From Chrysomallon squamiferum (lineage: Eukaryota > Animalia > Mollusca): DNA of 64,000 nucleotides. The DNA lies in NCBI GenBank assembly GCA_012295275.1, contig CM022672.1, forward strand, positions 20,646,001 to 20,710,000. The letters run 5' to 3'. Shown here one piece after another: positions 18,113 through 24,100 of the stretch. The position numbers and the translations under genes are program-made. The stretch's first letter is position 1; the number at the start of each line of letters is the position of its first letter. The notes under the pieces are model-generated. The model saw only the letters and a program-made list of their open reading frames with translations. It was not told the DNA's origin and searched no databases.

Positions 18113-21100
18113 TTACTTCTGATAGTAATAAAAATCATCTGATGAAGGTCGCAAACCAAATGTAGCCTCAAATCTGTTAGCCAGAGATGTAAATGTTGGC
18201 CTGTCATTTGGGTTTCCTGACCAGCATTCTTGCATCATTTTGTGGTGTCTGTGAATAAGAAAAAATCTTGATAGGACTACCAAAAATAATATTTCTCATA
18301 ACAAGTTAAAAGAAGAAATAGGGTAAATGGAAAAAACAATCTAATTAATACTGAATGAATTAAACATTGTCCATTTAATCACTCATTTATTTGAATAAAA
18401 CTAAATGGGAAGATAATTTAATAATAGAAAATACACTCAGGCAGCTATGCACATTACTTTTTGACCTGGTTTATTGTATATTTAATTAATAATATAGCAA
18501 GTTTTGTGGATACAGCCATTGCTTTCACCATCTTAGAAATAATCAGTTTTTAAGCATATTCTCATAATTATTGTTGAAAAAATACTTTACTGCTGAAAAT
18601 GTCTATTTATATAAATAGTATTTATTTTTTATTTTTTTGGTTTTATTTATTTTGATAAATAATATTTATATGTGGTCATTACTTCTATTCACTGATATTA
18701 GTGTGACAGATTTTCTTTCTTTCTTAATTACTTTGGTGGTATTGTAATGCTGTATTATGGCAAAGATATCTGGACTTCAAATATGTCAGCTAGAATGAAA
18801 GAAAATCTTGTTCATTTTAATTTTAAAATTAAACATTTCCAATTTCCAAAATGGTAATATGCTTATTTCTATTACACAATATTTTATATTGATATTTAGT
18901 GTGTTTTTTGTACATGTAATTAATAATATAGTTTTATAAAATATACTTACATATCCTCACAGAATTCAGGTCGGCTAAGTCGGTATCCACTTTTCAGTTT
19001 ATGTGCAATATCACGACTTCGAATGTTGGCATAGGGAACTTGTCCTGTTAAATTTCAGAATGTATCATTGCGAAACAACAAAAGTTAGAACAAAATGACG
19101 AATTAATAAATATCAAAAGAAAGTAATAAATAAGCAATAGTTATTTTCAGCATTTGATAATTTTCCATCTTATCTCATTACTACAAAGAGTTGATATCTA
19201 TTTTCAATTATATGTAAAATTCAAATAATAATGTCAGATCACAAAACAAAAACTGACATTTAAAAGTTATTTGATCCAAATAATGAACAGTTCAATGAAG
19301 AATTTTACACCACTAGCCGAAGCTGCTTACATGTTTATATATTGGACTTATAAATTTATAAACTGCAATTAAAGTAAAGACTAACCAAGACTAAATATTT
19401 CCCAAAGAACGATGCCATAAGACCACACATCACTCTTTTCATTGGCGTTCTTCAGCGTTTGTAGACATTCCGGAGCAGTCCACTTGACAGGAATACGATC
19501 CTGAAACAAAGTTATAAAACAACATGCAAATTAGTGTGAAATTTAAAAAAGAAAGTGTTTATATATATAAAAATTACTATATTATTTACACTAAAAGATG
19601 TCACTAAACATGGAAATTATTTACTGTGAATGTTAAAAAGGAAATTATGTTTTAAAATATATATTAAAAAATAATTCCATTTAGGAAACAAATATTTCTG
19701 TTAACTGATTTAGAAATCATATCCACTTCATATCATCTTCAGCTTCTTATCACTTGATGTGTAATTCTACACTAAGAGATGTTAAATCTTATTACTCCTT
19801 TTAAATTGTCATCATCTTCTCTGTCTCCACGTTGAGGTCCAAATCCAGTAACTTTAGCTTGAAGAATGAACGTCAGGAGGACATTTCTTGCTGCCAGTTT
19901 CCTGTGTACAATCTACATAATGCACAGTAACAGCAAATCAACTTCATATTTCTAAAATATTCTGACAGTATGATCTACACCCTGTTCACTCCCATTTTAA
20001 AAAACGTTAGTCAAAAATAGCTCAATAAAAAAAAAAAAAAAAAAAAAAAATTTTGGTAATGGATGGACCAAAGATTAATTCAGTCTGATAAGATGTTTTA
20101 GTTTTGCAGTATATGATAGGAAAATACCAAAGTAAATGATTGTATTTATTATGAAAGTGAGAATACAGAAATCTGGCTTAAAGATATGGAGTTTGGAATT
20201 CAGTTTCGAATTGAGTTCATGATATCACACACACACACACACAACTGAATAAAATAATTAATAAACACATGTAAATAAAACATTAAGAAATAGAAACTAT
20301 TTTTGTGTGCTAAAAATAAACATATTTATACTGAAGATGGAATAGCATTTTAGTTCAAAATCATTGTTTTACTACTAAACTGTTTTGTCTTTCAAATCAT
20401 TAAAATAAGGTAGATGTGAACAAACATTTCTTGAGGCCAGGTATGACATAGCCTGAGCAATCTCCATAGCAATTCTCTGAATCTTCTCAATTGTATCATC
20501 TGTAGATTGTCCTTGCTGTTTGATTAGCCACTGGTCAAGCTGACCAGACTCGCAGTATTCAACAACCATTATAGGACCCACTGTAAATAGAAACAGAACA
20601 TTTCAAGTTTGTCGATTTAACTATATAATGTGTTACTGTGCATATTTAGCTATGTAATGTGTTACTGTATGCATTTAACTGTATAATGTATTACTGTATG
20701 TATTTAGCTATGTAATGTGTTACTGTATGCATTTAACTGTATAATGTGTTACTGTATGTATTTATCTATGTTGTATGTTACGGTATGTATTTAACTATAT
20801 AATGTGTTACTGTATGTATTTAGCTATGTAATGTGTTACTGTATGTATTTAGCTATATAATGTGTTAATGTATGTATGTATCTATGTAATGTGTTACTGT
20901 ATGTATTTAGCTATATAATGTGTTACTGTATGTATTTAGCTATGTAATGTGTTACTGTATGTATTTAACTATATAATGTGTTACTGTATGTATTTAGCTA
21001 TGTAATGTGTTACTGTATGTATTTAACTATATAATATGTTAATGTATGTATGTATCTATATAATATGCTACTGTGTGTATTTAACTATATAATGTGTTAC

Positions 21101-24100
21101 TGTGTGTATTTAACTATATAATGTGTTACTGTGTGTATTTAGCTATATAATGTGTTACTGTGTGTATTTAACTATATAATGTGTTACTGTGTGTATTTAG
21201 CTATGTAATGTGTTACTATATGCATTCAACTATATAATGTGTTACTGTATGTATTATGCTGTGTTAGGTGTTACTGTATGTATTTACCTATATAATGGGT
21301 TACTTTATGTCTATTTACCTGTAAGATGTGTTACACTATGTGTTACATACATAATATTTTACAGTATTTATTTACATGATACAAAAAATTACTATATGCA
21401 TTTACATATCTGTAGTTACTGTAGATATTTGTTGCATATGTAAATTGTTAATGTATGCATTTACATGTTGGAAATGTTACTGTATGTGTGTGTATATATT
21501 ACATAAACTTTGAAATACACACGTTCATCATTGTCAACAACAGCTCCCATGAAACGAAGGACATTTGGATGCTCTCCAACTTCTGTGGCTGCAAAATTTA
21601 TCTTGGCCATCATAAGCAGCACATCCTCTTCTGAGTGGTTATCTGAAAACCACATAAAGTATAAAATATTACATCAACACTAATATTTTTAGCTTAATAA
21701 TTTTATGTTGATGAAATAAAAATTCAAGATTGACATGAGAATGCTTAAAAAATAATATAATATTTTAATTCTGTTTTCACTGATCTAAGACTTATAATCA
21801 AACTGAAGGAAATAAGAATGTACAAAATTTGTCAGCATATAATAATTATAACACAGGAAAGTGAACAAACCTTTGACCAGTTTGGCCACAACAGTGTCAT
21901 GTCCTTCTGGAGCACTTTTCCATTTAGCTATGTTGATTTTGGCAAATCTTCCAGTCTGGATGAGTTTCAATAATGTCAGATGATCAGGCTGGACATACCA
22001 TGGTTGTTTTGCTTCGAAGTTCATACTTCCATAATAGTAGATCTCATTGTCTGGCGAGTAGGTATTATTCTATATAATAATGTGAGAAATTAGTTGGTTG
22101 TTTATTCAAAGCAAAGATACTGCAAATATAAACATTTTATTTTTTGATTTTTATTCGTTTAAAAATATTTATAATAAAGAAACATAATTTTTTAAGTAAC
22201 TGCAATTGTTTCAGATGTGGTTGTTTAATGAACAAATGCTTAATTAGCTCTACACTGAACGTATTTTAAATCTACAGTTGTGTGTGTGTGTGTTTGGGTG
22301 GGTGGGTTGATGGGTTGATGGGTGTGTGTGTGGGGGTGGGGGGTTGATGGATGTGTGTGGATAGGTATGTACAAGTACAAGAAGCATCTGTTTGAAGATA
22401 GATTAATAGGTATATAGATAGACAGACAGACAGACAAACAGAAAGACAAATATTCACACACATACAAACAGACTGACACACATACAAGGTGTCTTCTACT
22501 CCCATGAAAGCATGTTTTATTAAAAATCCAGGTTTAACGGCCTTGCAGGTAGGGGAGATAACCTGATCAGTGCACAGTGAATGTTTCATTCATTTGTTCA
22601 TGTAGTGTGGAGATTTACATTTGTACTTAGAGATTTAATACATAACAAATAAGTAGCATGTTTAGTTATGTTAATAAGTGCATATCATGTACATCTATTT
22701 TATCACAAAGATGATTAATATTATTAAACACACTCACAGTCACTGCCAGTGATGTGTGTTTCTTCACATTTTTCACTTTAGTGTCTGCAACAGGGTTGTG
22801 AATGGATATGTGATCTGAGCCTTCAATTGTTTTTGTCGTTTCCATGGATATCGACCCGTCCTCCAGAGTAAGAATGCCACAAGCAGCAGAACAAAGATAA
22901 TCAGAAGCAAAATTCCTGTAAATAAAACCAAAAACTATAATTTTAAAACATATATAATAGATTACTTTTTTTAAAATTAACATATGACATATACACAAAT
23001 AACATTACTATATATAAAGGTGAAAATATATATAAAGTAGCAAATAATTACAGTTAAAAATCAAAATGATTTAAGTTAACATTTACAGTGAAAAGTACAT
23101 CTGTTTTTTTTATATATGCAATTTTTAATATTTGTTTAGTTCAGCCTCCTCTTTCTTGAATTTTTTTATGGGGATGATATTTCTATTGAATTAAATTTCT
23201 GAAAAGTTTGTCCTTTTATCCCAATTAAGACAAAAATTTTAAATATTAATAAAGAATGTAAAAATACGAATAATAATAATTAAAAAAAAAACAATAAGAA
23301 CAAATAACTATAACAAAAAATTAGATAATATAAAAGATCCAAATAAAATATAAAAAAAAAAAAAATGTTGTGTTTTTTTCCACTTACCAATAACAATACC
23401 AGCGACAGCTCCCCCACTCAAGCCTGCTGATTCTGGTCTAGGTTCTGAAAACAGATCTAACTAAGTATCTAACTAAATAACATTTTGGCTTGAAATCCTC
23501 TTATATTAAGTGAAAATGAAATTTATTCTCATATATGACTTCCTTGCTTCAAATTTTTATTTAAATTTCACTTTTCAACTAAAACATTAAAAAAAAAAAA
23601 AAAAAAATAAAATAAAATGAATGAAATTATCATCCAAATATTTTTGAATGATTATTCCAGATTTGAAATTAAAAGAAGAGTTTAGAAACAGATGCAAAAA
23701 TATTGTAATCCACACACATGTGCTTCAGATATTTATTTGATGAAAATTATGATACTTTCTTACATTTCAATTTTCAAATAAAACATTGAAATTTGTTTTA
23801 ATAAAATAAACAAAATGAATGAAAATGAATGAAAAAAACGCCATTATTAAAGATTTTTGAATGAGTACTGCAGATTTAAAATTAAAAGAAGAGTTTAGAA
23901 ACAGATGGCACATTAATAATGGACAGTATTTTGGCAGTAATCCACACACATAAAATTATATAACACCAGTAACACATTTGGTTAATGATATCACTGGTAA
24001 TTAATATATATATTTTTTACCTTATAAGTTATTAGCTATTACCATAAGCTATTATTATTGCTGCTATTGCTTGTTTTATTTTATTATTTCTTTCAGCATG

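Follow-up and report, generated by a model that had tools for sequence, protein, structure and literature searches.

Whether a receptor that has lost the catalytic residues of its kinase domain is a failing enzyme or a receptor working by other means is the question raised by a locus of Chrysomallon squamiferum (assembly GCA_012295275.1, contig CM022672.1, 20,646,001-20,710,000). The window, that is, the whole stretch of 64,000 nucleotides (nt) that was analysed, holds a tyrosine-kinase-like receptor gene in two copies, A and B, and a smaller piece, C; all positions below are forward-strand coordinates within this window. A first-pass annotation had proposed that the catalytic motifs of the gene are replaced in a conserved way and that the product is a pseudokinase receptor. 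Judged from sequence comparison and taken as one whole, the reading that we favour on balance is a non-catalytic receptor, likely a docking scaffold that is phosphorylated by other kinases.

Mapping by tblastn with the closest database protein placed copy A, a receptor gene of 22 exons, at 18113-37875 on the minus strand, with the ATG and signal peptide at 37875 and the stop at 18113. Its product runs, in order, from the signal peptide through an EMI-like Cys-rich module, two EGF-like modules, about 600 beta-rich residues, an FN3 domain, a transmembrane helix and a juxtamembrane Tyr motif to the kinase-like domain and a C-terminal DDFYYYQK. Seven exons, K1-K7 (18113-22069, minus strand), when joined encode a tyrosine-kinase-like domain of ~310 residues that ends in the stop codon. 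The span of 19386..22069 first assigned to this domain was too small, leaving out K6 and K7 with the CW..RPTF motif. Tested singly against Pfam, the translations of K3, K4 and K5 matched PF07714 above the cut-off and that of K7 fell just under it, while those of K1 and K2 gave no Pfam match (six exon translations tested); Gigantopelta paralogs matched PF07714 at E 1e-50 to 1e-54.

In copies A and B (both minus strand), HRD is replaced by HRK and DFG by GFG, and copy C, on the same strand, reads HKKLAARN, VTGFG and MITKSNF. In HMMER alignments made through a Gigantopelta paralog, the K of MMAKINF in copy A aligned to the Glu of CSF1R LMSELKIM, so that Lys stands at the alphaC-Glu position, and the Lys of VAK aligned to the beta3 Lys of CSF1R. 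The alphaC Lys lies 17 residues past the beta3 Lys (K841 and K858 in the numbering of relative P0003), which is the usual distance from beta3 Lys to alphaC Glu in receptor tyrosine kinases; one profile alignment to EGFR placed it one column off. The Gly loop, QTGRFA, has kept a single glycine, the middle one of GxGxxG. Intact in copy A are the beta3 Lys (VVAK), the catalytic-loop Asn (LAARN), PVKWTAPE, SDVWSYG and CW..RPTF. The motif search, the codon view and the CSF1R alignment thus bore out the replacements of HRD and DFG, the missing alphaC Glu and the degenerate Gly loop, and every peptide quoted in the first-pass annotation was found on the minus strand, in K1, K2, K4, K5 and K7. Its description of the activation loop as acidic and Tyr-free held as well, but 'short' was overstated because the loop has one gap only relative to CSF1R.

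A pseudokinase is defined by sequence as lacking at least one of the VAIK Lys, the HRD Asp and the DFG Asp, in the wording of the accessible part of PMC13519141. By this sequence definition the domain is a pseudokinase, as had been predicted, with both aspartates missing. Among the residues on which catalytic competence is usually judged, the HRD Asp, the DFG Asp, the alphaC Glu and GxGxxG are absent from the sequence, and the beta3 Lys and the Asn are present.

To see how far the pattern extends, relatives were aligned. The closest database proteins are uncharacterized proteins of Gigantopelta aegis, with 73-75% identity in the kinase part and 69-71% in the ectodomain. With the kinase region as query, 1165 proteins were found at E 1e-10 or below. 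Motifs were counted over the best 120 of these, named gastropod and bivalve proteins plus Logan records, all of which also match the ectodomain of copy A at E < 1e-20. The third position of HRD was never Asp (0/120), being Arg in 90, Lys in 26 and His in 4, and the first position of DFG was Gly in 120/120. The beta3 Lys was retained in 120/120, AAR and PxKWxAPE were nearly invariant, and no conserved Asp or Glu was found close by within the catalytic loop. The activation loop was net negative in 111/120 and Tyr-free in 118/120. In the aligned full-length relatives, Y789, G818, K841, K858 (alphaC), H939, N946 and G959 were each invariant (106/106), and the third Gly-loop position (A821) was Ala in 104/106. 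Outside the domain core, a juxtamembrane motif [DE][DE]-I-Y-x-[YF]-G occurred in 99/120, with Met three residues past its second aromatic residue in 82/108, and Y[YF]Y was found near the C-terminus in 93/120. The replacements are not chance, because they are common to all 120 closest relatives, and by the sequences compared constraint acts on the replaced positions too, since neither the alphaC Lys nor the Gly ever varies and the catalytic-base position is always basic. Being common to copies A, B and C and to 120/120 of these relatives, they are also older than the local duplications, as first proposed.

Because a ranking based on the kinase part could favour proteins with altered motifs, we also searched with the ectodomain only. 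The 37 relatives found in this way all come from molluscs; where a kinase part is present it carries the same motifs, and the remainder are truncated models. Canonical HRD/DFG thus occurred in 0/120 of the kinase-ranked relatives and in 0/37 of those found by ectodomain, so that the sequence outcome named as refuting in the first-pass annotation was not found among them. HMMER, run exhaustively over 1.84 billion representatives, returned 1,491 proteins at E 1e-30 or better. Among the best 150 of them, the checked matches that span ectodomain and kinase part have H-x-[RKH], most also with GFG, and proteins with HRD/DFG match chiefly in the kinase part, mostly in several stretches. Look-ups by name brought in two annelids, Owenia fusiformis with a full-length member (HKKLAARN, KIYGFG, NAKLNF, VVAK) and Lamellibrachia satsuma with a partial one (HRRLGTRN, GFG, VAKMKF), which rule out a family confined to molluscs; ten further representatives looked up likewise were all molluscan. 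As the annelid members share the pattern, the replacements predate the mollusc-annelid split, a dating that uses general animal phylogeny. As far as the sequences go, the gene is no local oddity but belongs to a large family represented in molluscs and in two annelids at the least; single genomes of gastropods and bivalves carry many paralogs.

The members carry database labels such as 'uncharacterized', 'FGFR', 'FER-like', 'angiopoietin-1 receptor-like' and 'ephrin receptor-like'. Four relatives (P0121, P0122, P0126 and P0147) are annotated as ectodomain only, with neither a transmembrane nor a kinase part, and may be gene models cut short, or else soluble or decoy versions of the receptor. 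In oyster, three neighbouring 'Angiopoietin-1 receptor' genes (G32145-G32147), which may belong to the family, are markers of a hemocyte cluster in PMC12064177.

Selection on the domain was assessed by comparing A with B. Copy B, at 50877-63073, duplicates A in tandem and is 5-10% diverged from it, with exons 86-100% and introns 82-90% identical, and carries its catalytic loop at 52365-52388 and GFG at 52317-52328. In a tree that included Gigantopelta and Haliotis paralogs, A and B were each other's closest sequences (support 100/100), which means that they either duplicated within this lineage or have since been homogenised. The ratio of nonsynonymous to synonymous substitution rates (dN/dS; Nei-Gojobori, own script), a check suggested in the first-pass annotation, was 0.22 for the kinase-like domain (311 codons, 13 nonsynonymous and 15 synonymous changes, dS 0.080), with a significant deficit of nonsynonymous changes (binomial p 1.6e-4). 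None of the 13 amino-acid differences falls on a motif position. The ratio was 0.43 for the ectodomain (802 codons) and 0.75 for the EMI/EGF exons (104 codons). These results show that, between the tandem copies, constraint is strongest on the kinase-like domain.

Two further features of the A/B comparison were noted. The EMI/EGF exons (29838-31435) and E8 (27775-27994) are 86-94% identical, with dN/dS of 0.66-0.75, near the pace of introns, and by these figures evolution is much faster at the putative ligand-binding end than in the kinase-like domain. Conversely, the last coding exon with its 3' flank (18075-18318 versus 50839-51081) is 98.4% identical between the copies, against 82-90% in introns, which suggests either that gene conversion has occurred or that the exon of the C-terminal YYY and the 3' untranslated region are strongly constrained.

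One rival reading is an atypical active kinase. Its invariant basic residues (the alphaC Lys and the Arg or Lys at the HRD-Asp position), along with the beta3 Lys and the Asn, would bind metal-free ATP and allow phosphotransfer of an unconventional kind, for which CASK, with GFG for DFG, is a precedent. The retention of the beta3 Lys, G818, N946, A821, AAR and PxKWxAPE is compatible with this, as are the facts that the replaced sites are constrained rather than drifting and that no other part of the protein is as conserved as the kinase domain. However, every member has lost both the catalytic base and the metal-binding Asp, with no acidic residue conserved nearby, nearly all activation loops are devoid of Tyr, and CASK itself keeps the HRD Asp. 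We therefore hold an active kinase to be improbable.

A different concern is the integrity of the gene, since both copies carry lesions in the window. Copy A is one letter short between 22824 and 22825 (TTT read as TT) in the juxtamembrane exon E14, which would stop translation ahead of the kinase domain. Copy B has two surplus letters in K1 (54192-54193) and lacks the 3' half of E13 (~55315-55394). The frameshifts in A and B had escaped the first-pass annotation. Contigs of two DNA runs from two studies (X1 and X2) and of two RNA runs (X8 and X9) were aligned to 21380-28720 and 53680-57800. At the site in copy A, the extra letter was present in the sole covering DNA contig of each run (depth 93.6/93.6 in X1 and 6.47/6.47 in X2). 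At 54192-54193 in copy B, the two letters were left out in X1 (243.9/243.9), in X2 (28.7/28.7) and in the RNA of X9 (10.9/10.9). For E13 of copy B, an X9 RNA contig has, between 55011 and 55394, 35 letters coding for the missing part of the transmembrane segment, and the loose ends of DNA contigs at 55315 read likewise. As the lesions are absent from the read contigs, they are most likely errors of the assembly consensus, or rare alleles; indels in the window thus break genes that are intact in the reads, and consensus errors may have disrupted other gene models of this assembly too.

The gene is also spliced and transcribed. RNA contigs join exons at the predicted borders, with nine joints on A (eight with GT..AG ends on the minus strand) and five on B, and being spliced they are not DNA carry-over. 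Run X8 gave no contig on copy B at 97% likeness, which is no evidence of absence. That A and B are decaying pseudogenes, in which the motif changes have no function, would explain the one-nt deletion in A, the two-nt insertion and missing half exon in B, and the broken frames of C. Yet the lesions of A and B are missing from all covering DNA contigs and from RNA, transcripts are spliced, the kinase-like domain is under constraint, and the motifs are conserved from gastropods to annelids. Decay is thus very improbable for A and B, and the description holds only for copy C.

Structural models were used to place the conserved parts. The AlphaFold2 (AF2) model of a Gigantopelta paralog (1091 residues) had a mean predicted local distance difference test (pLDDT) score of 84.4, mostly 82-95 in the kinase blocks, and matched kinases only in Foldseek. 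In the same model the activation loop, predicted to be disordered, scored ~58 (residues 967-971 below 50), and the juxtamembrane segment and the C-tail fell below 50. The juxtamembrane motif and the C-terminal YYY are thus conserved within segments that are predicted to be disordered.

For the ectodomain, exon E9 was modelled with pLDDT 89.5. Its best VIA-align match was sDscam FNIII1-3 (Z 9.0, root-mean-square deviation (rmsd) 5.2, 175 residues aligned), followed by the FN3 tandems of LAR, gp130, titin and Tie2 (Z 7.9-8.4), and Foldseek matched it to tandem FN3 domains at E 1e-4 to 1e-3. The mid-ectodomain is therefore best read, from these models, as FN3-like repeats. Pfam fn3 in E12 was under the cut-off in Gigantopelta and above it in the Haliotis and Tegillarca members scanned. 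The ectodomain exons and the open reading frames elsewhere in the window gave Pfam matches below cut-offs only.

From these data a mechanism for the docking receptor can be proposed. Canonical phosphotransfer by the kinase-like domain would not be expected, because neither a catalytic base nor a Mg-binding Asp is left. The conserved tyrosines of the juxtamembrane segment and the C-tail would be phosphorylated in trans by another kinase and would then recruit SH2 or PTB proteins. YGxM, which we take to fit the YxxM consensus of PI3K p85 as in HER3, could serve as a p85 site in parallel to HER3. As a switch of conformation, the basic cleft may still accommodate a nucleotide in the absence of metal, or else an acidic segment. 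That the dead site is fixed in a charge-reversed form and not degenerate argues that the cleft has been under selection for a non-catalytic role.

Several points weigh against this reading. The invariant beta3 Lys, G818, Asn, AAR and P+1 loop are what a kinase that binds nucleotide and substrate keeps, and residual or unconventional activity may persist. Tyrosine phosphorylation and an SH2 partner are inferred purely from motifs. In the window itself, A has a frameshift ahead of the kinase domain and B has two lesions. These were discounted on the strength of assembled contigs, in which rare variants are lost and which may derive from other individuals. Of the kinase exons, the regions compared with reads and RNA take in K1 and K2, and HRK and GFG are encoded in K4. 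The RNA contigs, 93-100% identical per exon, have no certain assignment to A or B.

Overlapping with the docking receptor is a switch without catalysis, in which the cleft would bind metal-free ATP, a phosphorylated ligand or the receptor's own acidic loop and so set dimerisation or allosteric control; the working part would be the cleft and not the tyrosines. Such a switch is favoured by the loss of three acidic residues and the gain of two basic ones in the cleft, every one of them under constraint, and by the mostly acidic activation loop and the retained Gly-loop glycine, Lys and Asn. On the other side, the acidic loop is modelled with low confidence and no docked pose is predicted; with no ordered pose from AF2, the idea of the loop in the basic cleft is without model support. 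We consider a switch of this kind unlikely, if less so than an active kinase. Slightly better placed, and still doubtful, is the broader proposal that heavily duplicated, lophotrochozoan-wide receptor pseudokinases have kept a charge-inverted cleft since before the mollusc-annelid split as a switch for an anionic ligand, be it metal-free ATP, phosphotyrosine or their own acidic loop. If true, the anion-switch cleft would be a class of pseudokinase mechanism without vertebrate counterpart. The family offers a natural test case for metal-free binding of nucleotides or anions.

The features of the locus are collected in the table. The window is AT-rich (~28% GC), and the exons are short with GT-AG introns.

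Features of the receptor locus in the 64,000-nt window (TM, transmembrane)
Feature	Position	Strand	Basis
Copy A exon 1, ATG and signal peptide	37808..37875	-	tblastn to N-terminus of database protein P0001; GTAAGT donor; putative, RNA contigs show no joint
Copy A exon 2, start of EMI-like Cys-rich domain	31783..31851	-	tblastn; AG acceptor, GT donor
Copy A exon E3, EMI-like domain (CCxGW)	31332..31435	-	protein-guided exon mapping
Copy A exon E4, EGF-like	30283..30378	-	protein-guided exon mapping
Copy A exon E5, EGF-like	29838..29951	-	protein-guided exon mapping
Copy A exon E6, ectodomain, beta-rich	28918..29208	-	protein-guided exon mapping
Copy A exon E7, ectodomain	28395..28548	-	exon mapping; RNA joint 27994/28395
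Copy A exon E8, ectodomain	27775..27994	-	RNA joints 27421/27775 and 27994/28395
Copy A exon E9, two FN3-like beta-sandwich domains (predicted)	26595..27421	-	AF2 model and structure matches
Copy A exon E10, ectodomain	26170..26287	-	RNA joints 25744/26170 and 26286/26594
Copy A exon E11, ectodomain	25550..25744	-	donor set by RNA joint 25142/25550
Copy A micro-exon E11b, 37 nt, ectodomain	25106..25142 (56833-56869 in copy B)	-	only through RNA joints 24497/25106 and 25142/25550 (runs X8, X9)
Copy A exon E12, membrane-proximal FN3 domain	24231..24497	-	Pfam fn3 in relatives; RNA joint 23444/24231
Copy A exon E13, start of TM segment	23388..23444	-	exon mapping; RNA joint
Copy A exon E14, TM helix and juxtamembrane; one letter short between 22824 and 22825	22738..22915	-	A/B alignment
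Copy A exon K1, juxtamembrane motif, degenerate Gly loop, beta3 Lys (VVAK)	21871..22069	-	RNA joints 22069/22738 and 21642/21871
Copy A exon K2, alphaC helix, Lys for Glu (LLMMAKINF)	21523..21642	-	codon view, alignment, RNA
Copy A exon K3, hinge to alphaE	20426..20580	-	Pfam PF07714 E 2e-7; RNA contig loose end runs into exon
Copy A exon K4, catalytic loop and acidic activation loop	19796..19912	-	motif matches 19883-19906 (HRK) and 19835-19846 (GFG); PF07714
Copy A exon K5, P+1 loop (IPVKWTAPE), SDVWSYG	19386..19500	-	Pfam PF07714 E 1.2e-14
Copy A exon K6, alphaF-alphaG region	18951..19044	-	exon mapping
Copy A exon K7, CW..RPTF, C-terminal DDFYYYQK, stop	18113..18248	-	codon view, Pfam
Copy B kinase exons K1-K7	54134-54334, 53787-53906, 52787-52941, 52278-52394, 51887-52001, 51419-51512, 50877-51012	-	exon mapping, alignment
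Copy B ectodomain, TM and juxtamembrane exons E3-E14	54832..63073	-	tblastn, exon mapping, alignment
Copy C fragment: half FN3 exon 46062-46205, K2 45798-45926, K4 45183-45302, K5 44933-45081 and K6 44410-44454 (frames broken)	44410..46205	-	

Micro-exon E11b had been missed by protein-guided exon mapping. Exons 1 and 2 of copy B were not found within the window. In copy C, HKKLAARN lies at 45273-45296 and VTGFG at 45225-45236, and K1 and K3 were not found; it shares the replacements, as first noted, but is not the full diverged copy it was taken for, being, by its broken sequence, a fragment and most likely a pseudogene. A 29-nt minisatellite occupies the K2-K3 intron at 20615-21374 in A (~26 copies) and at 52977-53669 in B (~24 copies); since both copies have it, it is older than the duplication. 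Inside intron 1 of copy A, 33229-35496 (plus strand) shows open frames in shifting phases and the GC peak of the window (0.385). These frames gave no Pfam match, and the stretch may be a decayed mobile element.

Receptor pseudokinases as such are known; among the literature searched, this family with its fixed charge-reversed cleft, its size and its age is new. Full-text searches found no description of the family or of its motif pattern, with the supplements of the oyster kinome paper and Kwon et al. 2019, which may list these proteins, not covered. In the main text of the oyster kinome paper, as far as accessible, the term pseudokinase does not occur (PMC4883820). A large class of mollusc surface receptors, now labelled 'uncharacterized', 'FGFR', 'FER-like' or 'angiopoietin-1 receptor-like', should be left out when active tyrosine kinases are tallied for kinome or pathway analyses.

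We then compared the family with known systems. A partial likeness in motif state was found in the hemichordates Ptychodera flava and Glandiceps talaboti, whose proteins have HRKLGARN or HRKLAARN and no DFG Asp (SFA/SFS). They differ in that the alphaC Glu is kept, the Gly loop is missing and only the transmembrane and kinase parts match, at 28-30% identity. With the alphaC Glu kept and no ectodomain match, these proteins (P0170, P0175, P0193, P0199 and P0239) were rejected as members and are probably, judging by sequence, a separate receptor-like pseudokinase group. CASK, a cytoplasmic protein of the CaMK group reported to be active without Mg, likewise has GFG for DFG, whereas the HRD Asp is kept in CASK and not in the family.

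The ectodomain points to other proteins. Draper, MEGF10 and PEAR1 resemble the family in an N-terminal EMI-like Cys-rich module followed by EGF repeats; in bivalve members, EGF_TEN was above the cut-off in two oyster proteins and below it in Tegillarca, and EGF_PEAR1L was below it. The likeness is confined to the first 100-250 residues, and these proteins have no kinase-like domain. Draper signals through cytoplasmic tyrosine motifs that are phosphorylated by other kinases, as is proposed here for the family. Tie1 and Tie2 share with the family EGF and FN3 repeats ahead of a tyrosine-kinase-type domain, and several members are named 'angiopoietin-1 receptor-like' by NCBI. The match of E9 to the FN3 domains of Tie2 (Z 7.9, rmsd 5.2, 174 residues aligned) is tied with many unrelated FN3 proteins. 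Tie kinases are active and, in contrast to them, the family has non-canonical kinase motifs and no detected Ig domain; no Tie kinase was among the best 60 solved matches.

The kinase part is closest to FGFRs. A single-sequence search found CSF1R, Eph, FGFR and FLT3 about equal (E ~1e-33). With the family profile, the best 60 solved kinases were 59 structures of FGFR1-3 (E ~1e-77) and one tandem EGFR construct. The best fold matches of the AF2 model were also FGFR kinases (target-normalised template-modelling score 0.79-0.87, 31-35% identity). FGFR1-3 are thus like the family in sequence and fold, and some members are named 'fibroblast growth factor receptor'. FGFRs differ in having HRD, DFG, the alphaC Glu and YY in the activation loop. 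Membership in the FGFR family was rejected, given the EMI/EGF and FN3-like ectodomain, the Tyr-free activation loop and the absence of any Ig-like domain from Pfam scans of family members.

The human receptor tyrosine pseudokinases, eight in the table of a 2026 review (PMC13259870), are like the family single-pass proteins with a tyrosine-kinase fold and replaced catalytic motifs. Single elements of the pattern recur among them in that table, as EphA10 has GFG, STYK1 has GLG with a basic alphaC residue, and HER3 is without the HRD Asp and the alphaC Glu. As tabulated there, the family differs from all eight in combining HR[RKH], GFG and the alphaC Lys with a retained beta3 Lys. It differs as well in ectodomain architecture and in its occurrence, in molluscs and annelids and not in vertebrates. 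An orthologue of HER3, PTK7, RYK, ROR1/2, EphA10, EphB6 or STYK1 was rejected, since the similarity list and the motif states both differ. With FGFR1-3 as the nearest solved kinases and none of the eight among the best 60 or in the single-sequence and fold lists, the sequences support an origin independent of PTK7, RYK and ErbB3, as the first-pass annotation had supposed. Receptor pseudokinases have so far meant the eight human proteins and their orthologues, and the mollusc and annelid family stands apart from them.

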